This document shows, piece after piece, positions 4,746 to 47,876 of a DNA stretch of 55,303 bases. Position 1 is the stretch's first letter. The number at the start of each line of letters is the position of its first letter. The position numbers and the translations under genes are program-made. The notes beneath the pieces were generated by a model that was given only the letters and a program-made list of their open reading frames with translations, made no database searches and was not told the DNA's origin. The DNA is from Candidatus Methanophaga sp. AG-394-G06 (GTDB lineage: Archaea > Halobacteriota > Syntropharchaeia > Alkanophagales > Methanospirareceae): NCBI GenBank assembly GCA_009903405.1, contig PRCZ01000004.1:1-55303 (forward strand), written 5' to 3'.

Positions 4746-4800
4746 CAAACTTTTCTAAACAATAAAGAGTATAAAAATGAGGAACATTTATGTATATAAC

Positions 4801-4858
4801 AGATCACAGATCACCCATTACCGATCACGCATTACCCATTACACATCACGCATTACCC
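4801..4858. repeat. H-type heptamer array (ATCACGC/ATTACCC units), C-rich strand on +
   Basis: Sequence is agatcacagatcacccattaccgatcacgcattacccattacacatcacgcattaccc, with 7-nt periodicity. Confidence 0.8.
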
Positions 4859-4875
4859 AAAAGAACGAACTTTAC

Positions 4876-5448
4876 TTACCGCTCTCTCCATCTGCGGTTA
4901 AGCGTCCGATAACCAAACCCGTTGAAAAACACCCTACAAATCGCAAAACCAGCAAGACAGACCAAAATAAGAGTACCCATAATCTCAGATGCAAACACAT
5001 AAGACAGCGCGGGCACGTACGACTTGGTAAACGCAAGGAGAAAATATTCATACCAGTTGTCACCTATTACCGTCCCTTTTGGAAATCCGAATCCATACAA
5101 TGGATAGAATAATGTTGCGGGTATTTCCCACATCTTATCTTCTATCAGGTGCATAAACGCGCCGAATGAAAGGCAAAAGACTGCATCGCGATGATCTTTG
5201 AAGAAGAATCCAAGTAGTACCAATATCAATACGAAGAGCAGCGTATGCCCGAACAATCTTCCATTTGCTACCGATTCGCCAAGCAGAATACGTCCTATCG
5301 GTTTGTCTATCAGGTCTGGGAGGATCGCTCCAAGCGCAACGAACAAATAATTGATCTTCTTCAGTCTTATCCCAATCCTTGGAAGAACTAATTGGAATAT
5401 TATGAATGCAATGCCAAGCGTGATCCCCAGATGTCCAAATACAAACAT
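4876..5448 (-). CDS. membrane-bound metal-dependent hydrolase (YdjM/DUF457-like)
   Basis: 190 aa and polytopic. Contains MFVFGHLGITLG, LPDLIDKP, GHT and MHLIEDK His/Asp motifs. Confidence 0.7.
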   Translation of the reverse strand: MFVFGHLGITLGIAFIIFQLVLPRIGIRLKKINYLFVALGAILPDLIDKPIGRILLGESVANGRLFGHTLLFVLILVLLGFFFKDHRDAVFCLSFGAFMHLIEDKMWEIPATLFYPLYGFGFPKGTVIGDNWYEYFLLAFTKSYVPALSYVFASEIMGTLILVCLAGFAICRVFFNGFGYRTLNRRWRER

Positions 5449-5554: not shown

Positions 5555-5797
5555 ATGAATGAATTGGCGATAACTGTTAGGGTTAGAGGAGCTACTGCAA
5601 GGATGTTAGAGGAACTTGTGGAAAAGGGATATTATTCTACAAAAGCGGAGGCACTCCGTGCTGGGATACTTCATCTCGCGGAGGAGTATGGTATGATAGG
5701 TTCTCCTATATACTACCGAAGAATGTTGAAGTCAGAAATCGGGCGGCAAATAAAGCATGAAGAGATAGAGAAAGTGTTAGAGGAGATAGAAGAGTGA
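5555..5797 (+). CDS. vapB: RHH-type VapB-like antitoxin
   Basis: ITVRVRGATARMLEELVEKGYYSTKAEALRAGI is a ribbon-helix-helix pattern. Overlaps the downstream PIN gene by 4 nt. Confidence 0.55.
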   Translation: MNELAITVRVRGATARMLEELVEKGYYSTKAEALRAGILHLAEEYGMIGSPIYYRRMLKSEIGRQIKHEEIEKVLEEIEE

Positions 5798-6225
5798 ATT
5801 TACGTGCATATCTGGATACAAACGTATTCGTTTACGGGTTACTTGAAGATTGTAACTCTTCTATTATATTGTCAACGGCGGAAGCAGGAGCTCTGGAGGT
5901 AGTAGTTTCAGAATTGGAGGTAGAGGAAGTTCAAACGGTTTTTAAACGGCTCGCCGGAAGGGAGGCAGGATTTTATGCCATGAGATATGTCGAGACATTG
6001 GCTGTAAAGATAGTGAAGAGAGAGGAGATGAAGAGCGAGATAACGGAAAATAGAGGTAAGATAAAGGATAAAGATGTGGAAAATGTAGCAGCGGTAAGGC
6101 ATGAACATTTAGAATTCCTGGTCGCTTATGACAGGGACTACGAAGGTGTGCCGGAATACATCACACCAAAGGATTTTATTGAAAGATTTGGAATAGGAAT
6201 AAGAGAGTATGATATAGAATACTGA
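5794..6225 (+). CDS. vapC: PIN-domain toxin
   Basis: YLDTNVFVY, SELEVEEV and VAYDRDY are acidic PIN motifs. Confidence 0.75.
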   Translation: MNLRAYLDTNVFVYGLLEDCNSSIILSTAEAGALEVVVSELEVEEVQTVFKRLAGREAGFYAMRYVETLAVKIVKREEMKSEITENRGKIKDKDVENVAAVRHEHLEFLVAYDRDYEGVPEYITPKDFIERFGIGIREYDIEY

Positions 6226-7677: not shown

Positions 7678-7971
7678 ATGGATGCTGACAAGATAGAAAG
7701 AGAATTGGAAGAGAAGAAAGTTTACATAAAGAGGGTTTTTCATATTAGTGAAGTAGGAATATTTGGTTCATTTATCAGAGGAGAACAAACCGCAAGCAGT
7801 GATATAGACGTTCTTGTTGAATTTGAAAAGGGACACAAGGATTTTTTTAATTATATGAGATTAAAACATTACCTTGAAGAGCTTCTTGGGAGAAAAGTTG
7901 ACCTGGTCATAAAAAATGCAGTTAAACCAAGATTGAGGGAAAGGATTTTTAGCGAGGTTGAATATGTCTGA
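7678..7971 (+). CDS. mntA: MNT-type nucleotidyltransferase (antitoxin of HEPN-MNT pairs)
   Basis: GIFGSFIRGEQTASSDIDVLVEF is the GSxxRGx..SDxD motif. 97 aa. Confidence 0.8.
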   Translation: MDADKIERELEEKKVYIKRVFHISEVGIFGSFIRGEQTASSDIDVLVEFEKGHKDFFNYMRLKHYLEELLGRKVDLVIKNAVKPRLRERIFSEVEYV

Positions 7972-8134
7972 ACAGAGAAGGGAGTACATACTTTTTATAG
8001 AGGATATCTCAACTTGCATTGAAAAGATAGACTTAGAAGCTGTGTGGGACACTCTAAGAAATAATATCCCATCCTTCAAGAAACAGATTGTAAACGTTTT
8101 AAAATCTGAAAAAGCATCAGAAGAGGAAAAATGA
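7964..8134 (+). pseudogene. hepT: HepT (DUF86/HEPN) toxin reduced to 56 codons by an internal in-frame deletion
   Basis: MSEQRREYILFIEDISTCIEKI (HepT N-terminus) is joined to AVWDTLRNNIPSFKKQI (HepT C-terminus). The Rx4HxY core is absent. The start overlaps the MNT stop. Confidence 0.55.
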
Positions 8135-8136
8135 AT

Positions 8137-8290
8137 AACTCATTACATACCTCACAATATTATATATCACACATCACCGATCACGCATTACGCATCACCA
8201 ATCACGCATCACGCATTACCGATCACGCATTACTGATTACCCATTACGTATACCCATCACCGATTACCGATCACGCATTACCCATCACCC
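8137..8290. repeat. H-type heptamer array (about 22 units)
   Basis: Sequence includes catcaccgatcacgcattacgcatcaccaatcacgcatcacgcattaccgatcacgcattactgattacccattacg. This is the longest array in the window. Confidence 0.85.
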
Positions 8291-8301
8291 AAAAGAACGA
8301 A

Positions 8302-8363
8302 CTGGAATATTTTGATATGAACGCAATGCCAAGGGTAAGTTCTATGTGTCTGAATACAAACAT
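8302..8363 (-). pseudogene. 5' stub of a YdjM-like hydrolase paralog
   Basis: Reverse strand reads MFVFRHIELTLGIAFISKYSS, compared with MFVFGHLGITLGIAFIIFQL at 5448. The flanks 8285-8470 are collinear with 4858-5560 minus the gene body. Confidence 0.55.
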
Positions 8364-8464
8364 GGTTTAAAGATATGTTATCTTTATATGATAGTTATTG
8401 ATTTATGAAAATCAATATACCTGAACCAAAGATAAAATTATAGGTGATAAAAATAATAGAAATA

Positions 8465-8620: not shown

Positions 8621-8628
8621 TTTATATA
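8621..8628 (+). promoter_or_regulatory. candidate TATA box for the RHH-cysDN operon
   Basis: tttatata ends 28 nt upstream of the ATG at 8656, which fits a short-leader or leaderless archaeal transcript. Confidence 0.35.
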
Positions 8629-8655
8629 CTCTTATATTACTATAATTAGAGTGTA

Positions 8656-8868
8656 ATGTCAGACAAAGTCACGATAAAGATACCGCAGGAATTATATGAA
8701 AAGCTGCGGGAGATGATAGGAGGCACTGGATTCTCCAGTGTGACAGAATTTATCGTTTTTGTGATGCGGAGTTTAGCGTCAAGCGGAAAGCTAAAAGAAG
8801 AAGACAAGCTAACAAACGAAGAAGTAGAAGCGGTAAGAGAAAGATTGAGGAGGCTTGGATATTTATGA
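8656..8868 (+). CDS. ribbon-helix-helix (CopG-like) protein with an LGYL C-terminal tail
   Basis: VTIKIPQELYEKLREMIGGTGFSSVTEFIVFVMRSL is an RHH fold pattern. The tail is EEVEAVRERLRRLGYL. Overlaps the next ORF by 4 nt. Confidence 0.7.
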   Translation: MSDKVTIKIPQELYEKLREMIGGTGFSSVTEFIVFVMRSLASSGKLKEEDKLTNEEVEAVRERLRRLGYL

Positions 8869-9089
8869 AGAACGAAGAGGAAAAGAAAGCCGTATTTTTA
8901 CCGGCTGTGCTTTATGGCAGAATAGAAGAGCGGGTGCATGCTACGGAATTCAACTCTGTGGCGGATTATGTCTCGTATGTGATGGAAGAGATACTGAGAG
9001 AAGAAGAGAGCGAAGAAGAACCTACTTTTAGTGAAGAGGAGGAAGAAGAGGTGAAGAAGAGATTAAGAGCGTTGGGCTATTTGGAGTGA
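8865..9089 (+). CDS. second RHH-like protein with an LGYLE C-terminal tail
   Basis: VFLPAVLYGRIEERVHATEFNSVADYVSYVMEEIL, then an acidic linker, then VKKRLRALGYLE. Confidence 0.65.
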   Translation: MKNEEEKKAVFLPAVLYGRIEERVHATEFNSVADYVSYVMEEILREEESEEEPTFSEEEEEEVKKRLRALGYLE

Positions 9090-9183
9090 GTGCAAATGGA
9101 CAATATTAATAAGACACTAACTACCTTTGCGGCGATTGGTGTGAGGGGATGTTTGTGATCAGAAAGGAGATGATGAAAAGAGA

Positions 9184-9999
9184 ATGGGACTGAAAGAACT
9201 GGAGAATAAGAGCATATATATTCTGAGGGAAGCGTACGCGGAATTCGAGAACCCGGCAATTCTGTGGAGTATGGGAAAGGACAGCACAACTGCGCTATGG
9301 CTGTGTCGAAAAGCATTCTTAGGTGAAATCCCATTTCCTGTAATCCATATTGATACGGGTTACAAGTTCAAGCAGATGTATGAGTTCAGAGACAGAATAG
9401 CAGAGGAATGGGGATTTGATTTAGTAATAGCGAAGAATGAAGAAGCGATGAAAGCCGGTATGGGACCAGAAAAAGGGAAATTGGAGTGTTGCACTGCGCT
9501 TAAAACGGAAGCTTTAATGAACTATCTTGATAAGCACAGGTTTGATGCTTTGTTCTTGGCAATACGGCGGGACGAACACGGGATACGAGCGAAGGAACGT
9601 GTCTTTTCACCACGCGATGAAGAGTTCCGATGGAATTACCGCGACCAGCCGCTCGAGATGTGGGACCAGTATCAAACTCAAGGTCGAAGTGAGAAGGGTG
9701 CTGTTCAGAACCACACGCGAGTGCATCCAATTCTGCATTGGCGTGAGTTGGACGTTTGGGAATATATAAAGCAAGAGAAAGACATTCCAGTGAATCCGAT
9801 GTATTTTGCCAACGATGGTAAACGGTATAGAAGCTTAGGCTGTGAACCGTGCACTTCGCCAATAGAGTCAACTGCAAAGACGATAGATGAGGTGGTGGAA
9901 GAGCTGAGAACAACAAAAGTTGCAGAACGGTCTGGTCGCGCACAGGACAAAGAGAAGGCGTTTATGATGCAGAAGCTGAGAGCGCTTGGGTACATGTAA
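9184..9999 (+). CDS. cysD: sulfate adenylyltransferase subunit 2
   Basis: Contains the SMGKDSTT PP-loop, HIDTGYKFKQMYEFRD, RSLGCEPCT and GRAQDKE. Collinear with E. coli CysD, including the ...LRALGYM tail. Confidence 0.9.
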   Translation: MGLKELENKSIYILREAYAEFENPAILWSMGKDSTTALWLCRKAFLGEIPFPVIHIDTGYKFKQMYEFRDRIAEEWGFDLVIAKNEEAMKAGMGPEKGKLECCTALKTEALMNYLDKHRFDALFLAIRRDEHGIRAKERVFSPRDEEFRWNYRDQPLEMWDQYQTQGRSEKGAVQNHTRVHPILHWRELDVWEYIKQEKDIPVNPMYFANDGKRYRSLGCEPCTSPIESTAKTIDEVVEELRTTKVAERSGRAQDKEKAFMMQKLRALGYM

Positions 10000-10080
10000 G
10001 GAAAATGTAAAAACTAAAATGTAAAGATTAAAATGACAAATTAAAAATAAAAAAATGAAATGGGCGGTTAAAAATAAAAA
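10000..10080. repeat. A-rich heptamer-periodic element after the cysD stop
   Basis: Sequence is aaaatgtaaaaactaaaatgtaaagattaaaatgacaaattaaaaataaaaaaatg. A closely related ~45-nt copy lies at 11311-11355. Confidence 0.7.
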
Positions 10081-11322
10081 ATGGGAACTGAGAAGATGAG
10101 CGTAAATGTGGTGCTCGTAGGGCATGTGGATCATGGTAAGTCCACATTGATAGGAAGATTGCTTTACGACAGTGAGAGCATAAAGGATGAACGGGTGGAA
10201 GAGATCCAGAAATTAGCAGAAGAATATAAGCGCAAATTCGAATTCGCTTATTTTCTCGACTCTTTTGAGGATGAACTGAAAGAAGAGCGGACAATAGACA
10301 CGGTAAGTTTGATGTTTAAAGGCAAGAAGAATTTTTACACGATAACTGACGTGCCAGGGCATAAGGAGTTTATAAAGAACATGCTAACAGGCGCGTCACA
10401 TGCGGATGTAGCGGTTTTGGTGGTATCTGCAGAAGAAGGCGTGCAAGAGCAGACGAGAAGGCATATGTTCCTGCTCAAGATGCTTGGCATCAAACAGGTC
10501 TTTGTAGTTGTAAATAAGATGGATGCTGTGGAGTATAATAAAGAGCGGTTTGAAGAAGAAAAGGAACAAATAAGCAAGCTTTTGGATTCCTTTGACTACG
10601 CGACAGGAGAAATGCTCTTTATTCCCGTGTCCGCAATGGAAGGCGATAACATTTACAAGTATTCCGAGCATATGAAATGGTATGACGGTCCAACGTTGAT
10701 AGACGCATTGGATGGCGTGAGACTGGAAGGAAAAGAGAAACCATTGAGGTTTGCTGTTCAAGATATATATAAGGTAGAGGATGAAGAGACAATCGTAGGG
10801 CGCGTGGAATCGGGAATTCTAAGAAGAGCAGACAATGTAGTTTTCGAACCTTCGGGCGTCAAGGCGAAAGTAGAGAAGATAAATGTCTTTGATGGCGAAT
10901 TGGCAGAAGCTAAGGCAGGGGATAGTATTGGTATTATTATAAACGGAGGAGTGGTAAAAAGAGGTGATGTTCTTGGACTTCTGGAGAAACCGCCAAAACC
11001 TACTAATGCGTTTTTAGGCGAGGCGGTTTTGCTGGATAAGAACTTGAAAAAAGGGGAAGTAGTGGAAATAAGGTGTGGAACTGCAAAAGTAAGTGGTGAG
11101 ATAAAAGAGATAAGAGAAAAGATAGATTCAGAGACAGGAGCAGTTTTAGAGAGTAATCCAGAAGAGATAAATGAGCATGATGCGGCAACTATTGTCTTTG
11201 CGACCGAGCCGCTGGTGGTAGAGGAATTCGCGGAGATTCCGGAACTCGGACGGTTTGTTCTCGTAAAAGCTAACAGGAATATAGGGGCTGGAGTGGTCTT
11301 AAATGCAGATGTTAAAATGTAA
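10081..11322 (+). CDS. cysN: sulfate adenylyltransferase subunit 1 (GTPase), no APS-kinase domain
   Basis: EF-Tu-like motifs GHVDHGKST, DVPGH and NKMD. Adjacent to cysD. 413 aa. Confidence 0.85.
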   Translation: MGTEKMSVNVVLVGHVDHGKSTLIGRLLYDSESIKDERVEEIQKLAEEYKRKFEFAYFLDSFEDELKEERTIDTVSLMFKGKKNFYTITDVPGHKEFIKNMLTGASHADVAVLVVSAEEGVQEQTRRHMFLLKMLGIKQVFVVVNKMDAVEYNKERFEEEKEQISKLLDSFDYATGEMLFIPVSAMEGDNIYKYSEHMKWYDGPTLIDALDGVRLEGKEKPLRFAVQDIYKVEDEETIVGRVESGILRRADNVVFEPSGVKAKVEKINVFDGELAEAKAGDSIGIIINGGVVKRGDVLGLLEKPPKPTNAFLGEAVLLDKNLKKGEVVEIRCGTAKVSGEIKEIREKIDSETGAVLESNPEEINEHDAATIVFATEPLVVEEFAEIPELGRFVLVKANRNIGAGVVLNADVKM

Positions 11323-11355
11323 AAATCAAAATGGCAAGTCAAAAATAAAAAAGAA
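11311..11355. repeat. A-rich heptamer-periodic element overlapping the cysN stop
   Basis: gttaaaatgtaaaaatcaaaatggcaagtcaaaaataaaaaag. The last cysN codons (VKM*) are encoded by the element. Confidence 0.7.
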
Positions 11356-11414
11356 TGCGTTACCAAAGAAATTAAAAGGGAAGGGGTTTATATTTTATCT
11401 ACAAGTTTTGGACA

Positions 11415-12227
11415 TTGGGAGCAATGAAAGCAGTACAAAGAGATAAGGGAACATTTCTCGTATTAGGCATAGATGCGGCGACATGGGCTGTTGTGAACGC
11501 GAATTTGAGCAAGTTAAGTAATTTTGAGCGGTTGATTAAGCTTGGCAAAAGCAAAGTAATCACGCTGACGGAGAAGCCTATATCTGCATCTATCTGGTGC
11601 GGTATGTTCTCAGGTAAGCTTTTCACGGAGCACAAACATGAGAGTTATGTTGTTAATGGCGATATTGTAAAGCGAGCGGATATAAATGTGGATTTTATAT
11701 GGGATATTCTACATGCGAGAGGAAAGAATGTAAAAGCGTTGAACGTACCTTTTGTTGTGCCGCCTTATTCATTCAACGTAGATTTTAAGCCCATAGGTTT
11801 TGGATTGCCCACGAATGAAAAGGAATGGGGAGAGGAGCTGGAACGAGTTACGGAGAAGACGAAAGAACTTTTAGTGGTTGAGAAGCCGGATTTGCTCATC
11901 GCTGTTTATACGTTTTTGGATAGGATCCAGCACTTCCACTGGGGTGAGGATTACGTAGTCGAGTGGTATGAGCGAATGGATGAGAAGGTTGGAGAACTGA
12001 TATTCGATACAGGTTTCTTAGATGGGAACAACAAGTTGATTGTAATTTCAGATCATGGATTCTGTTCTTTTGGCGAAGCAAAAGTGCAGACGCTGCCGGA
12101 ATACACGAAAGATGGGCAATTGAAGGGTGATCATCATGAAGATGCTTTTTTGGTAACGGTGAACGTGGATTATGAGGTAGAGAGACCGCAGGATGTGTTT
12201 TTTGCGATTGAAGAAGAGATTGTATGA
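11415..12227 (+). CDS. small alkaline-phosphatase-superfamily (NPP-like) protein
   Basis: LVLGIDAATW and VISDHGF are metal-ligand motifs. PISASIW occupies the nucleophile position (Ser instead of Thr). 270 aa with no tail motif. Confidence 0.55.
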   Translation: MGAMKAVQRDKGTFLVLGIDAATWAVVNANLSKLSNFERLIKLGKSKVITLTEKPISASIWCGMFSGKLFTEHKHESYVVNGDIVKRADINVDFIWDILHARGKNVKALNVPFVVPPYSFNVDFKPIGFGLPTNEKEWGEELERVTEKTKELLVVEKPDLLIAVYTFLDRIQHFHWGEDYVVEWYERMDEKVGELIFDTGFLDGNNKLIVISDHGFCSFGEAKVQTLPEYTKDGQLKGDHHEDAFLVTVNVDYEVERPQDVFFAIEEEIV

Positions 12228-12515: not shown

Positions 12516-12959
12516 TTATTCAACAACCGCTATTACTTTGCATGGTGCATTCTTCTTCAAATCGTCTACAATTTTAGCCCGTTTCTCTACCAATATCGTA
12601 TCTACATTATATCTCTGTACCACTTCGACAACCGATTCAACAAAGGGTCCTTTAACTCTTATTGTCTCAAAGGATATGCCACGTTTTTCCGCTTCCTTTT
12701 CCAATCTGGCCAATCGCTTCGAGATGACCTCTTCCCTATCTGCGTTTATATCTACCTCTAATCGCTCTACAACCTTTTCACCAAGAAAACCCAGATCATG
12801 CGTTAACCGGGCAACCTTTTCGGCAATATTCATATCTCGCACGCTTAATATGATCAGATCGGCTTTATCTCTCGCCGCAAGATCCAGTGCCTGCATTGCC
12901 ATTTTTTTGTGGATGGAAGTAGCAGAAAATGCTACTAATATTTTAGCTTTCGTCTCCAT
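12516..12959 (-). CDS. universal stress protein (UspA family)
   Basis: 147 aa. KILVAFSATS, DLIILSV and the C-terminal VDTILVEKR...APCKVIAV fit the USP alpha/beta fold. Confidence 0.7.
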   Translation of the reverse strand: METKAKILVAFSATSIHKKMAMQALDLAARDKADLIILSVRDMNIAEKVARLTHDLGFLGEKVVERLEVDINADREEVISKRLARLEKEAEKRGISFETIRVKGPFVESVVEVVQRYNVDTILVEKRAKIVDDLKKNAPCKVIAVVE

Positions 12960-12993: not shown

Positions 12994-14382
12994 TTAAATT
13001 ATGTTGATACCAATTAAAGGCCAATATGTAAATACCATAATAATAAAAACTAACCATGCAGTTAAATTTAAAATGAATGCAGGCAGCAGGATTTGACGTA
13101 TCGTATAATAGCCAGCCGAATATGCAATTGCATTTGGCGGCGTGCCCATAGGCAGGATAAATGCAAGTCCTGATGGTATGGCTATCAGAAACACCATAAT
13201 TATAGGGCTTATGCCTACTATATCACCTATACTGAATCCGATGGGTATGAGAATCGCAACACATGCAGAATTACTGATTGCCTCTGTAAGGAATATAGCG
13301 ATAAGTGGTAGTATCAGAACTACAATGACCGAGGTCAACGTGATGTTATCCAAAACGGTCATAGCAGCCCATTCTGCCGCTCCTGTCGATGCCAGTGCCG
13401 ATCCGATGGCGATTGCCCCACCGTACATTAGGATTATTCCCCAGTTGACATTGGATTCCACATCTCGCCATTTCAGCACATTGAGCATGAAGAGCAAAAC
13501 AGCAGAAAGAATCGCTATTACTGCTAATCCTATTGTATTACCAATAAATATCCATGAACAGACGGTCAGCAGCATAACACACCCCGCCTTCTTTTCTGCC
13601 CTCGTTATCTTACCTACGGCTACTAGTTCAGATCTGAGTACTTCTTTTGCCGGTTTGATTGTGTGTATATCCATTTTCAAAAAAAGATTTAATATGACAA
13701 AAGCAATTGCAAGCATTACAAATACAATTGGCATCGCTGCCACCATCCACTCAAAGAAAGTTATTTCAAGACCTGTGCTTTCTTTTAATAATCCGATAGC
13801 AAGTGGGTTCCTTGCACCGCCAAGCAGCGTTCCCACACCGCCTATCACGGCACCCCAGGCCAGTGATAAAAAGAGAAGTGCACCGTAATTGCTGTTTAAC
13901 TTTTCTAAATCTAAACTGTTCGCAATCGCAGCAACCACCGGAAACATCATGGCTGCAACGGCGTGTTCCGGCATTATAAAGGATAAAAATGCGCACGTTA
14001 GCATTATGCCAGCCAACAATTTACGGGGTGTGCTGTCAAATTTATTGAGCATAAGCAAAGCAATTCTTTTGCTTAAGCCTGTCTCAATCATTGCAGCGGC
14101 AAGGATGAAAGCACCAAGGATAAAGAATACCGCTGAGTTTCCAAAAAGAGCAAAAGCCTCTTTACTCGGCATCACGCCTAGTAGAGGAAGAAGAGCGATT
14201 ACAAACAGACCCGTCACAGAAAGGGGCAGCGCGTTTGTTATCCACAGAATAATAGCACATGCAAAGATCCCTATTGCATTTTTCGCTTCCGTAGACAGTC
14301 CTGTCGGTGCAGGCGATACCACAAAAACTGCAAGTACGAGTAATGAAAAAGCTATGATGATATATTGTCCTTTTCTATTCAT
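12994..14382 (-). CDS. DASS/SLC13-family anion permease (candidate sulfate transporter)
   Basis: 462 aa and polytopic, with hairpin motifs of the SNxx type (TEAISNSACVAIL). The gene context is cysDN. Confidence 0.7.
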   Translation of the reverse strand: MNRKGQYIIIAFSLLVLAVFVVSPAPTGLSTEAKNAIGIFACAIILWITNALPLSVTGLFVIALLPLLGVMPSKEAFALFGNSAVFFILGAFILAAAMIETGLSKRIALLMLNKFDSTPRKLLAGIMLTCAFLSFIMPEHAVAAMMFPVVAAIANSLDLEKLNSNYGALLFLSLAWGAVIGGVGTLLGGARNPLAIGLLKESTGLEITFFEWMVAAMPIVFVMLAIAFVILNLFLKMDIHTIKPAKEVLRSELVAVGKITRAEKKAGCVMLLTVCSWIFIGNTIGLAVIAILSAVLLFMLNVLKWRDVESNVNWGIILMYGGAIAIGSALASTGAAEWAAMTVLDNITLTSVIVVLILPLIAIFLTEAISNSACVAILIPIGFSIGDIVGISPIIMVFLIAIPSGLAFILPMGTPPNAIAYSAGYYTIRQILLPAFILNLTAWLVFIIMVFTYWPLIGINII

Positions 14383-14425: not shown

Positions 14426-14516
14426 AAAAAAACTTTTTTGCAAGCAAAAACCTTTACTAAAAAATGCTTACGCTTCTTTTTTGCAAGCAAAAACCTTTAC
14501 TAAAAAAAGCTTACGC
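14426..14516. repeat. element C, two tandem 43-44-nt units
   Basis: ttttttgcaagcaaaaacctttactaaaaaatgcttacgc occurs twice. Related to 944-1008. Confidence 0.8.
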
Positions 14517-14577
14517 TATAGCAAAAGGAACAGGTATAGTTTTCATCGGTACGATCATTGGCACGCTTTTGAAAAAA
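14517..14577 (+). pseudogene. N-terminal stub of a Wzx-type flippase
   Basis: Reads AKGTGIVFIGTIIGTLLKKF, compared with MAKGTGIVFIGSLAGVFLAF at 23566. It directly follows element C. Confidence 0.55.
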
Positions 14578-16764: not shown

Positions 16765-18636
16765 GAGGCTGTCCAACAATTACCAAACAACCAACAGATA
16801 ATATTTCCTGCACAGATATAAAAAGCAGTTTTTCTTCTCAACACCCCTTCACTTTATAGCCATATCTAACACGAATTGCAAAAGCGCATCCTAAAAATTA
16901 ATGAATTTCGATTCCAAGCGAAAAGAAACCGAAAAGCTTTTATTGCTGCACGTACAATTATACTTAGCTTATAAAAGCGAGGTGATGACGAGAAATGGCG
17001 ATAAGGGATGATAAAATGGGGCAGTCGTGGCTATTGCCCCCTGATATTAGTGAACTCATACCGGTAGACCACATCTGCTACCTGGTTATTGCAATCGTGA
17101 ATGGCATAGATGTTAGTGAAATAGAGGAGAAGTACAGGTTCAAACCGGGCAATTCGGCGTATCCGCGGCGGATGCTGCTCCGACTGCTGGTGCAGGCGGC
17201 AATCGATGGCGTATGGTCCTCCAGAAAGATTGATAAGTTGGCGCTCGAGAACGTGGTCTACATGTACCTGGCAGGGAACGAGAAGCCCGACTTTAGAACG
17301 CTATGTAAATTCCGATCGGAGAACAAAGAGCTGATCGAGGCTACCTTCGAGAAAACCGTCACCTTTGCTAAAGCATTGGGAATAGCGAAGTTGGGTCACC
17401 TCTCGACCGATGGTACCAAGATGAAAGCCAATGCCTCAAACAGCTACACGCTGAGTAAGGAGGAGATAAAGGCGATAAGGGAGATAATAGAGCGCGGAAT
17501 CGCAATAGACGAAGAAGAGGATAAACTCTACGGGGATAAGCGGGGTGACGAGCTGCCGCCCGAACTCAATACGCAGCAGAAGATTCGTGAGAAGCTAAAA
17601 GAAATTGAACAAGCCTCTAACAGGAAATTGAGGAGTGCCGCAAAGAATATTATCGAGCAGCATGCGCTTGGTGATGAGCTGCAGAAGGAGCAGATTATTG
17701 AAAAGCTTGATAAGGCTGAAGAAGAGCTAAATACGAGTGGACAGAGATCTGTAAGTATAACTGACCCTGAAGCAAGATTTATGAAGAACAAGAAGGAGCG
17801 AATCGAATTGTCATACAACCCGCAAATCACCGTAGATCACGATTCGGGGATAATCGTTGCCAATGACGTTACACAGGATTGCACTGACCACGCGCAGTTA
17901 GAGCCGCAGGTGAATAGTACGCTGGAAAATGTGGGGGAACTGCCGGAAGGTGCAAAACTGAGCTTTGATAACGGATATTTCAGTGGTGCTAACCTGCGAT
18001 ACCTGGAGACGAACGGGTTAGACGCCTATATTCCAGACCGCAAGCAGGCGGGGGAGATGAAGGGAAATAAGCCGAAGCTGAGCCCATTCTCGAAGGATTC
18101 GTTCGATTATGACGAAGAAAAAGACCAGTTTTTATGCCCCAATGGAGGGATACTCAGCAGAAAGGGCGAATATGAGTATAACGGTAAGCAGGTGTACGCC
18201 TATTATGGTGCGAACTGTGGTGAATGCCCGTTCCGGGCGGAATGCGCGGGTGAAGGCAAAACAAGGGTGATTACCAGTGACGGCTACGAGGGTGAACGCC
18301 GTAGGATGACAGCTAAAATGCGGTCGGAGGCGGGTAAAGAGGCGTACAAAAAGCGTAAGGAGACTGTTGAATGGCCTTTCGGTAACATCAAGCAGAATCT
18401 GAAGTTCCGTGAATTCCTGACACGTGGAATAGAGAAGGTTAGGGTAGAGCATAATCTGGTATGCACAGCGCACAATTTGAAGGTAATATGGGGTAAGTTG
18501 GAGAGGAATGTGCCGATCATCAGTACGATTCGGACGTTAGTAGCTAATTCGGTATCTAAAGTAGGGAGTTTTTTACGTGTTCACGCAATAATTAACTTTA
18601 AGTGTCAGTGTTGATAATTAATTGGGGGACAGCCTC
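16765..18636 (+). mobile_element. IS element (IS1182/IS5-like), 1872 bp
   Basis: Terminal inverted repeats are GAGGCTGTCC/GGACAGCCTC. A 4-bp direct duplication AAAC lies at 16761-16764 and 18637-18640. Removing the IS restores the rmlC frame. Confidence 0.85.
16995..18614 (+). CDS. DDE transposase (IS1182/IS5 family)
   Basis: N-terminal InsH-like region (LLPPDISELIPVDHICY, RRMLLRLLV), then STDGTKMKANAS and FDNGYFS DDE-type motifs. Confidence 0.8.
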   Translation: MAIRDDKMGQSWLLPPDISELIPVDHICYLVIAIVNGIDVSEIEEKYRFKPGNSAYPRRMLLRLLVQAAIDGVWSSRKIDKLALENVVYMYLAGNEKPDFRTLCKFRSENKELIEATFEKTVTFAKALGIAKLGHLSTDGTKMKANASNSYTLSKEEIKAIREIIERGIAIDEEEDKLYGDKRGDELPPELNTQQKIREKLKEIEQASNRKLRSAAKNIIEQHALGDELQKEQIIEKLDKAEEELNTSGQRSVSITDPEARFMKNKKERIELSYNPQITVDHDSGIIVANDVTQDCTDHAQLEPQVNSTLENVGELPEGAKLSFDNGYFSGANLRYLETNGLDAYIPDRKQAGEMKGNKPKLSPFSKDSFDYDEEKDQFLCPNGGILSRKGEYEYNGKQVYAYYGANCGECPFRAECAGEGKTRVITSDGYEGERRRMTAKMRSEAGKEAYKKRKETVEWPFGNIKQNLKFREFLTRGIEKVRVEHNLVCTAHNLKVIWGKLERNVPIISTIRTLVANSVSKVGSFLRVHAIINFKCQC

Positions 18637-19144: not shown

Positions 19145-19378
19145 ATGATGAGTGGTATGGAGGTCATAAGTTTTCGGATACCGAAGGAGTTGAAGGAGAG
19201 CGTAAATGAATTGGAAATCAACTGGAGCGAAGAAGTGAGAAGGTTCATAGAGGATAAGGTGAAGGAATACAAGAGGAAGAGAGCCTTGGAAGAGATAGAT
19301 ACAATGCTCAAAAATGTACCCCCGCCTGAGAAAGGAACAGCATCGAGGTATGTGAGGGAAGATCGTGATAGTCATTGA
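19145..19378 (+). CDS. vapB: VapB-like antitoxin
   Basis: ISFRIPKELKESVNEL...RKRALEEIDTML. Overlaps the downstream PIN gene by 14 nt. Confidence 0.6.
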   Translation: MMSGMEVISFRIPKELKESVNELEINWSEEVRRFIEDKVKEYKRKRALEEIDTMLKNVPPPEKGTASRYVREDRDSH

Positions 19379-19769
19379 TGCATCCACGATCGCGAAGTAT
19401 GTCCTGAAGGAAGAGCACTGGGAGCAGGTGAGGGACTATCTCACTGCTGAACCACGCTCACTGGACTTAGCGCTGGCTGAAGTTTCGAATGCTATCTGGA
19501 AGCATCAGGTGATCTACCGTAAGATATCGAGCAGTGACGCCACGTTACTCTTCGAAGCGCTGCAGAAATTAGGCGCGGATGTACTGATCCTTGAATCCTT
19601 TGCGGGGTATCTCCGCGGTGCTACTGAGATCGCGGTGAAGGAGAAGCTCACCATATACGATGCCCTTTACATCGTGCAAGCGCAGAGATATGGTCACTTC
19701 GTGACGAGTGACGACTTCCAGCGCAAGATCGCGGTGAAGCTGGGGCTCGAGGTAGTGTTTATCGAGTAA
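19365..19769 (+). CDS. vapC: PIN-domain toxin
   Basis: VIDASTIAKYVL, LAEVSNAIWK, IYDALYIVQA and FVTSDD. Confidence 0.8.
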   Translation: MIVIDASTIAKYVLKEEHWEQVRDYLTAEPRSLDLALAEVSNAIWKHQVIYRKISSSDATLLFEALQKLGADVLILESFAGYLRGATEIAVKEKLTIYDALYIVQAQRYGHFVTSDDFQRKIAVKLGLEVVFIE

Positions 19770-23535: not shown

Positions 23536-25095
23536 ATGTCCGAAAACGTAAACCAATCGCTCAAAAAAATGGCAAAAGGCACTGGTATAGTTTTTATCGG
23601 TTCTTTAGCAGGCGTATTTCTTGCTTTTATTGGCAGGCTTATGATTGCCAGATACGGGACTGTGAGTGAATACGGTGTCTTTTCCCTGGCATTAGTAATA
23701 CTGAACATCTGTGTTGTTATAAGTACCTTGGGGCTACAAAACGGAGTCACTCGCAGCATTGCCTATGCAAGAGGAAAAAATGAGAATGAAAAAATTCAGG
23801 GGTTTATTTCCGCTTCTATCTGGCTTAGTCTTGCAGCGAGCTTCATACTATGTTTTATCCTTTTCTTCGCATCGGAGACTATTGCAGTAAACATTTTCCA
23901 TGAGCCTGCTCTTATCGCTCCATTAAAGATATTCTCCATAGCCATACCGTTTTTCACCTTAAGCAGTGTCATTGTCTCCATATTCCTAGGATTTGGTCGT
24001 GTCCAAGCAAAGGTTTACTTCCAGGACATCCTGAGAAATGTACTTTTCCCGCTACTCTTGTTAGCTGTTATTCTCCTAAGTCTATCTTTCACCAGCGTCT
24101 TTTATGCTTACACAGTATCCTTAGCCGTTCCGTGCCTTCTTCTTGTAATCTATACCGTTAAATACCTACCCTCGTCAATAAAATTTACTGCTAAACAGAC
24201 TAATAATGCTAATCCCGTAGCCAAGGAACTTTTATTTTTTTCGCTCCCTCTACTAGGTGTGGCTATGCTGGGAATGATAATCGCTTGGACGGACACTTTA
24301 ATGCTCGGAAGTTTTAAAAGTACAGCGGAAGTGGGCATATATAATGCTGCACATCCTTTAGCCAATTTTATTTCCTCACCTTTAAGTGCTTTATTGGTGA
24401 TCTACATGCCGATTACTTCAGGTCTATATGCTCAGGGACTGATGCCAGAAATGAGAAGAAACTTCGCTATTTTGACCAAGTGGCTCTGCTCACTTACCTT
24501 GCCGTTATTTCTCATCCTATTTCTGTTTTCCGAAACGGTATTAAACTTCCTCTTCGGCGCCAGCTACATTTTTGCTGCAAATGCTCTTAGAATCTTGTCT
24601 TTGGGGTATTTTGTCAATAATTTCGTGGGACCTAACGGCGCTACTCTAACTGCTATAGGTAAAGTTCGATTTCTAATGTGGGCCACTTTAGCCACTGCCG
24701 TTCTTAATATCGGGTTGAATATTGCTCTAATTCCGCCTTTAGGCATTGTAGGTGCTGCCATCGCTTCTGTGGTTGCCATAACCTTTATCAATCTGATAAG
24801 ATGCTGGAAACTCTACTCGCTTACGGAAGCACAGCCACTGAGTAAAAATCTAATAAAGCCAACTTTAGTTTCTCTGACGTTGATATTTCTTATTTACTTT
24901 GTTTCCATAGAGTTTATTACCGTTACCCTATGGATGCTCCCTCTGCTCTTCATACTCTACTATGTCATCTATGGCTCGGCCATCTTGCTGACAAAGAGCT
25001 TTGACCAAGAAGACATAACAATGCTGCTGGCGATAGAAAAACGGACTGGCATAAATGCTGCTCCAATAAAGAAGTTTTTGAACAAGTTTCTATAA
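23536..25095 (+). CDS. Wzx-type polysaccharide flippase (MOP superfamily)
   Basis: 519 aa with about 14 TM segments. The N-terminal KGTGIVFIGSLAG is typical of polysaccharide biosynthesis proteins. Confidence 0.75.
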   Translation: MSENVNQSLKKMAKGTGIVFIGSLAGVFLAFIGRLMIARYGTVSEYGVFSLALVILNICVVISTLGLQNGVTRSIAYARGKNENEKIQGFISASIWLSLAASFILCFILFFASETIAVNIFHEPALIAPLKIFSIAIPFFTLSSVIVSIFLGFGRVQAKVYFQDILRNVLFPLLLLAVILLSLSFTSVFYAYTVSLAVPCLLLVIYTVKYLPSSIKFTAKQTNNANPVAKELLFFSLPLLGVAMLGMIIAWTDTLMLGSFKSTAEVGIYNAAHPLANFISSPLSALLVIYMPITSGLYAQGLMPEMRRNFAILTKWLCSLTLPLFLILFLFSETVLNFLFGASYIFAANALRILSLGYFVNNFVGPNGATLTAIGKVRFLMWATLATAVLNIGLNIALIPPLGIVGAAIASVVAITFINLIRCWKLYSLTEAQPLSKNLIKPTLVSLTLIFLIYFVSIEFITVTLWMLPLLFILYYVIYGSAILLTKSFDQEDITMLLAIEKRTGINAAPIKKFLNKFL

Positions 25096-26103
25096 CTTGC
25101 CCGATTTCTTAAGCTTTCTTATTACATCTTTAGCTCTTTCTCTTTCTGCATCAACCATTGGTAGACCAAACTTTTTAACGATTTCTGCTGTATTCGATGC
25201 ACTCTTTACGCTTTTGATCTTAAACCAGGGAACTTCGACAAGTATAGGTTCTCTACTTCCATGAGGATGGGAATACCTCCTATCTTCTCCAAGCAATTCT
25301 CCGTGATCGGCAGTAATTACAATTCTGCTTGAAGGCCGATCATGTAATATCTTACGAGATAGCTCTGCAACATATCCTAAGGCAATACCAAGGTTTTCTT
25401 TATATGCTTCTCTTAAACCTTCTACACCATATTTTCTTCTTACCGCATCCATTGGAGATGCAGGAGGTAATTTTAACATTTCTCTTAGCTCCCATGTATT
25501 TTTAATAATGTTGGTTTTTACTAACAAAGCACCGAGTATATTTACTACTCGTTCGACAGTTCTATTAGTTTGATCTCCTTGAACCCCAGATAAAGGACCT
25601 TTTGTAAAGGGATTTGAAAAACCTTTCACAAAAAACTCTTGTGAGATATAGGGGGCATGTGGTTGTAAATAATGTATTATAAATCTCTTTTCCGAGTACT
25701 TTTCAATTAAGCTTAAAGTAGAATCGTTAATTTCATGAGGTGGAACAGTTCCTAATTTCTCATCCCACCCAAATGCCCACACGTCGGCAACTTTATAGAA
25801 GTGCTTTTTTGCGTCAAATTCTGCCACTTTTACCTTTGAGTTGATGTATGGATTCCCGGATACATATATAACATCCGGGTAATAGCTCTGAAAGGATTTT
25901 TGACACCACTCTGGAGTGCAAGAACCAATAGAAACTCTCTTTTCCAAATCTCCTGAAAAATAATCGCTAATCATGTTTGCGAAATAATCATATCGACATG
26001 CATCTAAAAGTATAAGATTATCCCAGTCCTCATCCATAATTTTTAAGACTCCTGTCAACTGCATCCCTCCCTTTTCAACGCTATGCAAATCATATTTCCT
26101 CAA
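25090..26103 (-). CDS. alkaline-phosphatase-superfamily protein (337 aa) with a basic C-terminal tail
   Basis: LILLDACRYD, GSCTPEW and ITADHGE. The tail is AKDVIRKLKKSGKL. Confidence 0.55.
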   Translation of the reverse strand: MRKYDLHSVEKGGMQLTGVLKIMDEDWDNLILLDACRYDYFANMISDYFSGDLEKRVSIGSCTPEWCQKSFQSYYPDVIYVSGNPYINSKVKVAEFDAKKHFYKVADVWAFGWDEKLGTVPPHEINDSTLSLIEKYSEKRFIIHYLQPHAPYISQEFFVKGFSNPFTKGPLSGVQGDQTNRTVERVVNILGALLVKTNIIKNTWELREMLKLPPASPMDAVRRKYGVEGLREAYKENLGIALGYVAELSRKILHDRPSSRIVITADHGELLGEDRRYSHPHGSREPILVEVPWFKIKSVKSASNTAEIVKKFGLPMVDAERERAKDVIRKLKKSGKL

Positions 26104-47708: not shown

Positions 47709-47876
47709 TCTTATCGCCCTCCACTTTTGCTTATTGTATCTCCCATTTGCATATAAGATATATTTGGCAGTCAACAACAATCATCTTCTCTCTTCCAAGA
47801 ATTCCTTTAAGACATCCTCTGTAACTTTCATTCTATATTCTCTTGCTGCCTTGAGTTTTATGAATCGCAGCATTTC

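Follow-up and report, generated by a model that had tools for sequence, protein, structure and literature searches.

A capped C-terminal helix shared by ribbon-helix-helix regulators, CysD and related variants on alkaline phosphatase-superfamily enzymes: a candidate tethering tag of a sulfate-activation module

Two ribbon-helix-helix (RHH) proteins, the sulfate adenylyltransferase subunit CysD and, in a variant form, three enzymes of or resembling the alkaline phosphatase (AP) superfamily carry a common C-terminal tail in the window studied here, the whole 55,303-nucleotide stretch of DNA that was analyzed, which comes from a methane-oxidizing archaeon of the ANME-1 group. On comparison with shuffled, homologous, and neighboring sequences, we regard this tail as a real, selected, and modular element that is far from chance. 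Our preferred proposal, on which we see the balance as evenly poised, is that the tail helix is a portable tethering or localization tag that would direct pathway enzymes, transporter-proximal machinery, and regulators to a common site.

The six open reading frames and their C termini had been read correctly in the preliminary description (Table 1). The pattern search against shuffled controls that it had proposed was run on the window, and [KR]L[KR]xxG[YKR][LIM] matched 5 C termini among the 74 gene-like ORFs of the window, against a mean of 0.001 when the last 40 residues were shuffled; the pattern occurred internally once in the 15,730 residues of the window and at none of the C termini of its 83 non-gene ORFs. 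The statement that six proteins end alike needs some refinement: five match the pattern, the sulfatase-family enzyme fits it with a one-residue gap, and the tails of the AP-superfamily enzymes are best described as a related variant rather than as the identical motif. We therefore distinguish two forms. The Y-type, borne in the window by RHH1, RHH2, and CysD, has the consensus E-h-x-x-[IV]-[RK]-x-[RK]-L-[KR]-x-L-G-Y-[LIM], with near-invariant residues L-6, L-3, G-2, and Y-1; it is an element of about 15 residues behind a flexible, mostly acidic linker and has the features of a basic amphipathic helix with an S/T-x-E-E N-cap and a Schellman-type C-cap (L-x-x-L-G-Y-hydrophobic). The K-type, L-K-x-x-G-K-[IL], has a net charge of about +5 and is borne by the AP-superfamily enzymes, all three of which lack L-3 and Y-1. 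Synonymous sites differ between the tails of RHH1, RHH2, and CysD, which argues against recent gene conversion and for selection on the peptide. An Rfam scan of the window returned no matches.

Table 1. Features of the window discussed in the text
Feature	Position	Strand	Evidence and remarks	C-terminal end
RHH1 promoter and candidate operator	8621-8654	+	Comparative; operator at about 8626-8654	
RHH1, 70-aa ribbon-helix-helix protein	8656-8868	+	Y-type tail encoded at 8818-8865	...EEVEAVRERLRRLGYL
RHH2, 74-aa paralogous RHH-like protein	8865-9089	+	Y-type tail encoded at 9039-9086	...EEEEVKKRLRALGYLE
DUF2061 membrane-protein gene remnant	9096-9158	+	Internal deletion of about 250 bp	
CysD, sulfate adenylyltransferase catalytic subunit, 271 aa	9184-9999	+	Y-type tail encoded at 9952-9996	...KAFMMQKLRALGYM
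CysN-like, EF-1alpha-like GTPase, 413 aa	10081-11322	+	No tail	
Small AP-superfamily (Phosphodiest-like) enzyme, about 260-270 aa	11415-12227	+	Pfam Phosphodiest, E=5e-11; no tail	
Universal stress protein	12516-12959	-	Pfam	
DASS Na+/sulfate-type symporter	12994-14382	-	Pfam	
Wzx-type polysaccharide flippase	23536-25095	+	Pfam Polysacc_synt; adjoins tail-bearing AP-like genes	
Weakly AP-like 337-aa protein	25090-26103	-	K-type tail encoded at 25093-25143	...AKDVIRKLKKSGKL
NPP-like AP-superfamily enzyme, 540 aa	26110-27732	-	Pfam Phosphodiest, E=1.6e-33; K-type tail encoded at 26113-26163	...VKDQIKKLKESGRL
Sulfatase-family enzyme, 497 aa	40962-42455	-	Pfam Sulfatase, E=1.6e-44	...IKRAIKKLRYGKGRI
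K-type-like tail of the sulfatase-family enzyme	40965-41018	-	Sequence; one-residue gap	

Homologs of RHH1 were numerous: one search gave 1,113, a second gave 532 clusters at 50% identity, and roughly 580 species carry the protein. No part of the family is better conserved than the tail. RLRRLGY[LI] terminates 105 of the 120 closest homologs; among 150 sequences representing clusters at ≤50% identity, 126 have the tail no more than 4 residues from the end; and its residues L, G, and Y are the only invariant columns of a 52-sequence RHH alignment; the tyrosine is kept in 135 of 138 representatives, and F or W was never seen in its place. RHH2 carries the tail ...RLRALGYL[DE] in 54 loci, its 54 orthologs all ending in ...RL[RK]xLGY..[DE], and essentially all full-length CysD proteins of about 50 related loci end in ...MQKLRALGYM. 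The preliminary description had given E. coli CysD as ending in ...ELKKRQGYF and had taken the tail for an old feature of that family; E. coli CysD does have this end, the alignment with P. syringae CysD (1ZUN) extends to the same C-terminal end, and the G-Y-hydrophobic end is ancient. That the RHH proteins share the CysD motif is likewise borne out; their orthologs keep it, and it co-occurs with cysDN, cysD lying within 6 kb downstream of RHH1 in 38 of 47 informative species loci. The 80 loci analyzed, being those most closely related to the query, are biased towards cysDN contexts.

The 1,213 ORFs of related loci yielded 172 matches to the C-terminal motif, exclusively in pathway proteins, comprising RHH1, RHH2, and CysD-family proteins and three APS kinases. 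Short PAPS-reductase-like (PAPS_reduct) proteins (L043 and L048) and a sulfatase-like protein (L058) also bear the tail, and about 30 loci encode a TauE-family transporter that has the Y-type motif at an internal position, within a basic loop. Linkers range from about 10 to about 80 residues, the long ones being of low complexity. Tandem RHH-tail fusions occur among RHH1 homologs and account for a few of the N-terminal extensions of the long ones, most of which contain no domain. Being conserved, terminal, preceded by a flexible linker, and shared by unrelated proteins, the tail has the attributes of a short linear docking motif. Literature searches for the motif strings or for RHH proteins with sulfate adenylyltransferase retrieved nothing relevant, and the papers found on the 1ZUN CysD C terminus contain no description of the tail; this capped helix, which archaea and bacteria alike have kept, seems to be a tag not described before.

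The region from 8621 to 12227 is a conserved, horizontally mobile sulfate-activation module. The order RHH1–(RHH2)–CysD–CysN–small AP-like enzyme recurs in ANME, Methanoperedens, Methanothrix, and Dehalococcoidia, with CysD identities of 74 to 97% across loci of archaeal and bacterial phyla. CysD matches Pfam PAPS_reduct and the NCBIfam CysD subfamily model NF003587 (331.6 bits; cutoff, 195), scores under the cutoffs of TIGR02039 and NF009214, and aligns with 1ZUN_A at an E value of 1.5e-65; in an AF2 monomer model its residues 247 to 271 are helical with a pLDDT of <50, the tail being unpacked, and its conserved loop 130-173 is unstructured. The cysN gene adjoins cysD here, as it does in 37 of 38 related loci. 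Its product scores 303 bits against TIGR02034 (cutoff, 336) and higher, 407 bits, against EF-1alpha models, also below their cutoffs; in a published phylogeny ANME-1 CysN groups with CysN (PMC6286981). The small AP-like gene is the conserved last enzyme gene of the module, following cysN in at least 23 loci and often overlapping its stop codon by 4 nt, and the pair of genes for the universal stress protein and the symporter stands beside RHH1 in L067, L077, and L084. Bacterial CysDN (E. coli; P. syringae, 1ZUN) shares with this system the CysD fold, the ERxGR...G-Y-hydrophobic end, and the adjacent cysN, but CysD of the window is without an insertion of about 35 residues that the bacterial protein has and carries the tail ...KLRALGYM, CysN is closer to EF-1alpha, and the operon adds RHH1, RHH2, the AP-like enzyme, and often a TauE or DUF2061 membrane protein, with cysC and cysH absent.

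RHH1 exceeds the Pfam RHH_1 cutoff of 20.5 with 25.5 bits. RHH2, whose start overlaps the RHH1 stop (ATGA), has no Pfam RHH match and is 34% identical to RHH1 in alignment, and its Methanoperedens ortholog retains an ...IKIPKE... strand; its gene follows RHH1 in ANME-1 and Dehalococcoidia and the AP-like gene in Methanoperedens, ANME-2, and Methanothrix. A TATA-like box lies upstream of RHH1 at 8621-8628, and ACT(C/A) boxes at 8628-8631 and 8639-8642 together with GAGTG at 8649-8653 make up three subsites with 11-bp phasing; the palindrome ACTATAATTAGAGTG occupies 8639-8653, 3 nt upstream of the RHH1 ATG. Loci of archaea and of bacteria have equivalent CACTnnAATnn boxes immediately upstream of RHH1, and the palindromic box is present in 39 of 79 RHH1 upstream windows against 0.003 expected per window. 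The palindrome has its sole exact match in the 55-kb window at this site; a search for further operator copies there gave only chance-level two-mismatch matches within coding sequence. The comparative support for the conserved CACT box, overlapping the RHH1 promoter, as an operator is strong and suggests that RHH1 is probably an autoregulator. A second region, 9090-9183, had been put forward in the preliminary description as a regulatory site; alignment with L005 and L014 shows it to be the scar of a deleted DUF2061 gene, which when intact encodes 104 aa and matches Pfam DUF2061, and for that reason we dropped it.

In architecture, these proteins resemble the RHH antitoxins and repressors (CopG/Arc/MetJ/Mnt, ParD, CcdA, RelB, and PutA), with which they share an N-terminal RHH domain, a flexible linker, a C-terminal segment, and, here as a prediction, autoregulation at an operator with phased subsites. 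The C-terminal segment of RHH antitoxins and repressors binds a partner or oligomerizes, and PutA switches between DNA and membrane, a switch that relies on a large enzyme domain and not on a tail. The present system differs in that it lacks a toxin gene, metabolic enzymes and a transporter also bear the tail, and the RHH1 family is linked to sulfate and sulfonate genes across archaea and bacteria.

Among the K-type proteins, the ORF at 25090-26103 has no Pfam or NCBIfam match and aligns by hhalign with the NPP-like family at 37% probability over only its C-terminal 91 residues, a stretch that contains the tail and a DHG motif; by this alignment it is weakly AP-like. The AF2 model of the NPP-like enzyme has a pLDDT of 94 (70 to 81 in the tail helix, residues 520 to 535), and Foldseek confirmed its NPP fold. 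Most of 120 orthologs of this enzyme keep the K-type tail, but four (P0439, P0463, P0476, and P0495) have the Y-type in its place, which shows that both variants occupy the same position. K-type tails occur in orthologs from Thermococcus, Geoglobus, and Methanotorris, in glycan loci with no cysN nearby, and sulfatase-like neighbors of the RHH1-CysDN module in other phyla end in ...RIGKLRSTGKI, in ...RVKGLKDSGRI, and once in ...RRLQRLGYTYKSDE. The NPP-like gene stands beside a Wzx flippase gene in four independent loci, and the pairing seen in the window recurs in L031, L085, and L087. The suggestion that the AP-superfamily enzymes are part of this system is supported by the many loci in which NPP-like or sulfatase-like genes adjoin RHH1 or the cysDN module and by the NPP-like orthologs that carry Y-type tails. 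The median net charge of K-type tails is +5, and their HeliQuest-type index (D=1.6 to 2.0) falls in the lipid-binding range, at or above the values for the membrane-targeting sequences of FtsA and MinD; the Y-type gives 0.95 to 1.26, borderline or marginal for lipid binding.

We infer from these data both a tethering function and the kind of site involved. The tag would bring pathway enzymes, transporter-proximal machinery, and regulators together at one place, and the RHH regulators could then report on the assembled pathway or be sequestered by it. The common site would not be CysN as such but more likely a membrane-proximal platform, such as the cytoplasmic face of the membrane or the transporter, or a shared protein, for which the tail-less AP-like enzyme is a candidate; the AP-superfamily enzymes of the glycan locus would use the more basic K-type variant at the same position. 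In favor of tethering we count the nonrandomness and conservation of the motif, the retention of the module across archaeal and bacterial phyla, the presence of the tail on successive pathway components from different protein families, the transporter-loop copy, the variable linkers and tandem fusions, and the unpacked CysD tail; we also count the lipid-binding index and charge of the K-type tails, the NPP-like genes beside the Wzx flippase, the operator evidence pointing to RHH1 as a DNA-binding regulator, and the synonymous differences between the three Y-type tails. The tail resembles the MinD and FtsA membrane-targeting sequences, these too being short basic amphipathic helices at the extreme C terminus after a flexible linker, with a comparable hydrophobic moment and charge index. 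They tolerate many substitutions, however, and contain more F, L, and W, whereas in the Y-type tail four positions are near-invariant and the hydrophobic face is narrow; such invariance, with Y never replaced by F or W, is stricter than generic membrane binding would lead one to expect. The marginal amphipathicity of the Y-type and the awkward placement of an acidic linker beside an anionic membrane also count against tethering, as does the G-Y-F end of E. coli CysD, E. coli CysDN being a soluble complex. The invariant residues could also simply be what a self-capping terminal helix needs, so that a shared sequence does not necessarily imply a shared partner.

The preliminary description had nominated CysN as the common partner, with RHH1 and RHH2 mimicking the CysD tail and competing for CysN and with the AP enzymes joining the complex. 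In favor of this scheme, the ribosomal stalk protein aP1 of archaea binds EF-1alpha by way of an acidic linker and a C-terminal hydrophobic helix, and CysN here is EF-1alpha-like. CysD is moreover the obligate partner of CysN and has an ancient G-Y-hydrophobic end, which in this clade has moved from ...KKRQGYF to ...KLRALGYM, towards the RHH form; its tail and loop 130-173 are unstructured in the monomer model, as expected of partner-dependent segments, and RHH2 tracks cysDN almost one to one (54 RHH2 and 56 CysD matches). The contacts between CysD and CysN in 1ZUN have been summarized (PMC5770160). The tail nevertheless persists where cysN is missing from neighborhoods of 6 to 10 kb, although the gene may lie elsewhere in those genomes: in Sat and APS-kinase loci (L068, L077, and L084) in which the APS kinase is itself tailed, and in L068 and L077 has both its native last helix and an added linker and tail; in RHH1-RHH2-TauE-AP loci without cysDN (L036 and L062); on an RHH1 encoded next to a sulfonate-type ABC transporter (L081) and in TauE loci; and on the NPP-like enzymes of bacterial Wzx/Wzy loci (L085 and L087). 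The K-type glycan loci mentioned above add to this. Within these neighborhoods CysN does not always accompany the tail, and the presence of the tail on APS kinases, the TauE loop, PAPS-reductase-like proteins, and NPP-like enzymes without CysN nearby makes CysN an unlikely common partner and the competition scheme unlikely with it; CysN may still be the contact of CysD's own copy of the tail.

Self-association, by which RHH1 and RHH2 dimers would oligomerize cooperatively on the phased boxes, the enzymes would form homo- or hetero-oligomers, and enzyme tails could titrate regulator cooperativity, strikes us as distinctly unlikely. The Mnt repressor has a C-terminal tetramerization helix, the hydrophobic positions -13, -10, -6, -3, and 0 have a heptad-like 3-4-3-3 spacing, an acidic N-terminal and a basic C-terminal half would be self-complementary in antiparallel pairing, three operator subsites at 11-bp spacing imply two or more dimers, and tandem RHH-tail fusions exist; but two heptads are very short for a stable coiled coil, low-complexity linkers, which can reach about 80 residues, are ill suited to short-range cooperativity between dimers, and the transporter-loop copy is left unexplained. 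It is very unlikely, in our judgment, that the tail has no shared function and is a recurrently arisen capped helix that, in each protein, lies against the protein's own domain or contributes to solubility or stability. A Schellman C-cap would by itself call for L-6, G-2, and a following hydrophobic residue, the NPP-like tail helix is modeled with moderate pLDDT, and a T. siculi RmlD-like protein ends in ...LTEKGYL. The native last helix of the APS-kinase fold is also alike (7YQ0, ...EEEVEAVLKKLMELGYL; 8A8H, ...VIRTAQKLGYL; 3CR8, ...LEHEGYL), and the fold, seen also in 2GKS, is that of a sulfate-activation enzyme with a chain ending in S/T-x-E-E-x-V-x-x-h-x-x-h-x-x-L-G-Y-L. That helix is, however, integral to a folded domain, its face is more hydrophobic, and the tailed kinases carry both; the similarity is not statistically significant alone (E of about 0.35), a tail-only profile searched against the PDB returned noise, and we take the resemblance as a lead only. 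The restriction of the 172 matches to pathway proteins, the extra tails of those kinases, the conservation of the tail above all else in the RHH family, and the nonrandom gene linkage all argue against such convergence. A long shot, finally, is that the invariant tyrosine is reversibly O-sulfated or adenylylated from the APS or PAPS of the pathway, with the small tail-less AP-like enzyme as writer or eraser, arylsulfatase-type chemistry acting on aryl sulfates such as Tyr-O-sulfate. If true, a single shared tail would let the product of the pathway feed back on its transporter, its enzymes, and both RHH regulators together; K-type tails are without the tyrosine and would have to work differently.

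Coming back to the tethering tag, a close parallel within sulfur assimilation is the C-terminal tail of CysE, which docks into CysK in the cysteine synthase complex, alongside CymR-CysK and the CdiA-CT tail mimic. There, too, a short C-terminal peptide of an enzyme docks on a partner, and a regulator and an unrelated protein use the same site on that partner, coupling enzyme assembly to regulation. The complex has been described (PMC6829319). The differences are that the proteins are others, the receptor is known, and the motif is ...GDGI with the terminal Ile inserted in the active site, whereas the tail described here is a capped helix of about 15 residues that is also found internally.

How strict anaerobes, anaerobic methanotrophs among them, activate sulfate is poorly understood, and the process may supply sulfated glycans rather than cysteine. 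The comparisons define a compact module that has spread between archaea and bacteria and consists of CysDN, an AP-like enzyme, and an RHH regulator and its operator, often joined by a TauE or DUF2061 membrane protein, together with a 15-residue tag common to the regulators, at least three families of pathway enzymes, and a transporter loop. The tag also offers a sequence by which additional members of the system can be sought, and both operator and tag are open to direct experiment. If the tag does assemble or localize the pathway, it would be a simple and transferable means of coupling enzyme assembly to transcription.

The closest homologs of the window's proteins are named as ANME-1 (Methanophagales) proteins, and the window is assigned to an archaeon of this group on that basis. 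The six open reading frames (ORFs) listed in the preliminary description, and their C termini, were recovered exactly, and the view that they share an ending was upheld beyond chance: the regular expression proposed there matched 5 C termini among the 74 gene-like ORFs of the window, against 0.001 expected from shuffled controls, with a single internal match in 15,730 residues. The tail of the sulfatase-family enzyme fits the expression only with a one-residue gap. The ending splits into two variants, a Y-type tail, a C-terminal helix ending L-G-Y-[LIM], on CysD and on the ribbon-helix-helix (RHH) proteins RHH1 and RHH2, and a K-type tail on the alkaline phosphatase (AP)-superfamily enzymes. 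Counting back from the last motif residue (position 0), the Y-type profile, drawn from 138 RHH representatives at no more than 50% identity, comprises E(-14) (106/138), a hydrophobic residue at -13, I/V(-10), R/K(-9), R/K(-7), L(-6) (134/138), K/R(-5), L(-3) (129/138), G(-2) (133/138), and L/I(0); Y(-1) is kept in 135 of the 138 and is never replaced by F or W. The motif lies at the C terminus or one residue short of it in 115 of 132 cases, and the only invariant columns in an alignment of 52 RHH family members are tail residues. The K-type profile, from 49 orthologs, comprises E(-17), E(-15), K/R(-14), a hydrophobic residue at -13, K/R(-12), I(-9), K/R(-8), L(-6) (49/49), K(-5), G(-2), K(-1), and I/L(0), with a median net charge of +5 over the last 16 residues. 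Both variants share the frame hydrophobic(-13), L(-6), basic(-5), G(-2), and hydrophobic(0) and differ at positions -3 and -1. Since a Y-type tail replaces the K-type at the same position in 4 of 120 NPP-like orthologs, and intermediates such as ...RITRLKELGKL occur, it is reasonable on sequence grounds to group the two variants, which are nevertheless not identical.

Positions of the window genes and of related loci, with the C termini of NPP-like orthologs carrying Y-type tails
Feature	Position	Strand	Basis or remark
RHH1, ribbon-helix-helix protein	8656-8868		domain search
RHH2, small RHH1 paralog	8865-9089		start codon overlaps RHH1 stop
CysD	9184-9999		domain search
CysN, EF-1alpha-like	10081-11322		domain search
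Small Phosphodiest-type AP-superfamily enzyme, tail-less	11415-12227		domain search
Universal stress protein (USP) and Na+/sulfate-type symporter (DASS)	downstream of AP-like gene	opposite	domain search
Weakly AP-like protein	25090-26103		domain searches
NPP-like enzyme	26110-27732		domain search; predicted fold matches NPP structures
Sulfatase-family enzyme	40962-42455		domain search
Sat-type loci (Sat and APS kinase in place of CysDN behind RHH1)	L077 8329-10218; L084 10231-12121; L068 2089-2694		
P0439, NPP-like ortholog with Y-type tail			...IRARLRGLGYLDD
P0463, NPP-like ortholog with Y-type tail			...LERKLKGLGYL
P0476, NPP-like ortholog with Y-type tail			...LEKRLKGLGYL
P0495, NPP-like ortholog with Y-type tail			...IKERLKGLGYL

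A scan of species genomes returned at least 582 loci encoding a relative of RHH1, of which the best 80 were analyzed; these come from archaea (ANME-1, ANME-2, Methanoperedens, Methanothrix, Methanofastidiosum, Aenigmarchaeota, and Undinarchaeota) and bacteria (many Dehalococcoidia, Thermodesulfobacteriota, and others). Among the 47 loci with at least 4 kb of sequence downstream of RHH1, cysD lies within 6 kb downstream in 38 and cysN in 37. The order in ANME-1 and Dehalococcoidia is RHH1-RHH2-(TauE or DUF2061 membrane protein)-CysD-CysN-AP-like, and that in Methanoperedens, ANME-2, and Methanothrix is RHH1-CysD-TauE-CysN-AP-like-RHH2. The cysN stop codon frequently overlaps the AP-like gene by 4 nt in relatives (L027 3955-3958, L001 8331-8334, L038, L050, L055, L058, and L064), which suggests translational coupling and the AP-like enzyme as a possible third CysDN subunit; in the window, the two genes are separated by about 90 nt (11319-11415) with no overlap. 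Between archaea and Dehalococcoidia, CysD proteins of the RHH-linked clade share 74 to 97% identity, an indication that the module has spread laterally as a unit. Tails within the clade are near invariant (...MQKLRALGYM in CysD and ...RL[RK]ALGYL[DE] in RHH2). That the G-Y-hydrophobic end of CysD is ancient, as the preliminary description stated, is borne out by the E. coli terminus ...SMELKKRQGYF and by P. syringae CysD (1ZUN), to which the alignment runs to the very end; the form with L(-6) and L(-3) is specific to the RHH-linked clade.

Directly upstream of the RHH1 start in nearly all loci, archaeal and bacterial alike, lie CACTnnAATnn boxes in 11-bp phasing that close in a palindrome, as in CACTACAATTGCACTCTAATTGGAGTG. 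The window copies (ACTC at 8628, ACTA at 8639, and GAGTG at 8649-8653) overlap a TATA-like box at 8621-8628, and the last ends 3 nt before the ATG. The palindrome consensus has a single exact match in the 55-kb window (8639-8653), and a relaxed form occurs in 39 of 79 upstream windows, with 0.003 expected per window; judged from these patterns, RHH1 is probably a sequence-specific autoregulator acting at this predicted operator. The interval 9090-9183, suggested earlier as a second regulatory site, had to be abandoned as an operator: it holds the remains (9096-9158, between RHH2 and cysD) of a gene for a 104-residue DUF2061 membrane protein. Other ANME-1 genomes have the gene intact (L005 1536-1850); in the window it has lost about 250 bp internally, with its 5' and 3' ends kept. 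Degenerate intergenic tandem arrays of heptamers, (ATCACCC)n in about 18 copies and (ACCCATT)n, occupy 8166-8291 and 4799-4859, one of them about 365 bp upstream of RHH1; ORFs 8131-8370 and 4777-5112, which span them, are probably artifacts. A 43-bp direct repeat (two copies, 97% identity) lies at 14433-14517 between the symporter and nucleotidyltransferase genes. Toxin-antitoxin-like genes are found at 47074-47780, 5794-6225, 19365-19769, and 7678-8134 (one PIN gene paired with a VapB-like antitoxin gene, two more PIN genes, and a nucleotidyltransferase gene followed by a small ORF); the antitoxin ends ...DEEEEEIKKSLVELWRTWKMD, an acidic linker and helix without the tail motif.

The tail also extends beyond CysDN loci. 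Y-type C termini occur in 172 of 1213 gene-like ORFs from related loci, and all belong to RHH1, RHH2, CysD-family proteins, or APS kinases. In bacterial Sat-type loci, RHH1 is accompanied by an ATP sulfurylase of the homo-oligomeric type (Sat), an APS kinase, and an NPP-like enzyme; CysDN is absent, and a USP/symporter pair often lies upstream. The APS kinase of these loci carries an added linker and ...KIKKRLEDLGYI or ...IVKKRLENLGYY beyond a complete kinase domain. A similar end closes the native last helix of the APS kinase fold in solved structures (7YQ0, ...EEEVEAVLKKLMELGYL; 8A8H, ...QKLGYL), a likeness that is statistically nonsignificant by itself. The C termini of two short PAPS_reduct proteins read ...KEKLKKLGYL and ...KKRLKALGYI, and that of a sulfatase-like neighbor reads ...IKRRLQRLGYTYKSDE. 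In the module's 272-residue TauE/SafE-family membrane protein, the entire motif is internal and lies in a highly basic loop (DF+RDE.LIKERLRGLGYLP+S), and this internal copy (...IKERLRGLGYLP+S...) recurs in about 30 loci (L026 9817-10638, L022 1823-2650, L054 10622-11428, and some 27 others); the window has no TauE/SafE gene and instead has the DASS symporter downstream. Some Dehalococcoidia carry RHH1-RHH2-TauE(-TauE)-AP-like without cysDN (L036 and L062), and RHH1 adjoins a sulfonate-type ABC transporter or TauE gene in L081 and L073. Tandem RHH-tail-RHH-tail fusions were also found, so a free carboxylate is unnecessary. Three RHH1 family proteins of about 210 residues (P0222, P0253, and P0256) have an N-terminal RHH domain (DUF7557/RHH_10), a central domain of about 90 residues without a family match, and a C-terminal RHH-tail unit.

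The tailed NPP-like, sulfatase-family, and weakly AP-like genes of the window all lie in one glycan biosynthesis locus with a Wzx-type flippase, glycosyltransferases, aminotransferases, and nucleotide-sugar enzymes. Two of three DDE transposase genes (16995-18614, 32001-33167, and 33617-35305) lie within this locus, and a GT4 glycosyltransferase is divided between two ORFs (Glyco_transf_4 N-part, 36913-37719; Glycos_transf_1 C-part, 36527-36907), so that the gene (36527-37719) may have been frameshifted or broken. RHH1 adjoins in L031 the same flippase/NPP-like pair as that at 23.5-27.7 kb in the window. The NPP-like orthologs with Y-type tails belong to Wzx/Wzy polysaccharide loci of bacteria, and neither RHH nor cysDN genes occur within 10 kb of them. 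A Thermococcus siculi K-type ortholog lies directly upstream of a PAPS-type Sulfotransfer_1 gene in a glycosyltransferase-rich locus (L089 8001-10444), which hints at a role for the NPP-like family alongside PAPS-dependent sulfation, such as the handling of PAP, PAPS, or a phospho or sulfo group.

The preliminary description had taken the tail to be a CysN-docking peptide, with the RHH proteins competing with CysD for this common receptor. Such a mechanism could apply to the tail of CysD and perhaps to that of RHH2, whose occurrence follows that of cysDN, but it misfits the wider distribution, since tails persist in neighborhoods without CysN, and as a general account we consider it improbable. 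AlphaFold2 models the core of CysD with confidence, and both the helical tail (residues 247-271) and the highly conserved segment 130-173 have pLDDT values below 50, as would be expected of segments that become ordered only when bound to a partner. The NPP-like model has an overall pLDDT of 94, with 70 to 81 for the tail helix (520-535). From the sequence pattern of the tail, we infer a self-capping helix with S/T-x-E-E as its N-cap, a narrow stripe of hydrophobic residues, and a Schellman-type C-cap, whose expected key positions are L(-6), G(-2), and the aromatic residue that comes next. Of the readings weighed against each other here, the least probable is that the tail is just such a capped helix and that its copies have no function in common, and a role in self-association is only slightly less doubtful.

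We give about even credence to the tail being a common-site tethering tag. CysN, Sat, and the small or 451-residue AP-like enzymes are never tailed, and the AP-like family is a candidate receptor because it is the sole tail-less family common to both module types. A membrane face or transporter is also a candidate site for such tethering, favored by the transporter loop copy of the motif, the very basic K-type tails, and the NPP-like genes adjoining the flippase. The HeliQuest-type index of K-type tails (1.6 to 2.0) is in the lipid-binding range, on par with the FtsA and MinD membrane-targeting sequences, and that of Y-type tails (0.95 to 1.26) is borderline.

ANME cysDN genes were already known (PMC6286981); our literature search found no account of the RHH1-type family, of its operator, or of the shared tail. 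Conceptually, the closest parallels are the CysE tail/CysK/CymR system of sulfur metabolism, RHH antitoxins that bind partners through their C-terminal tails, the PutA switch between DNA and membrane, and MinD- or FtsA-type membrane-targeting helices. The shared tail is a robust and widespread feature and, on the evidence of its distribution, is a selected, portable module marking members of one functional system, which would comprise sulfate or sulfonate uptake, activation to APS or PAPS, the AP-superfamily enzymes of glycan loci, and the RHH regulators.
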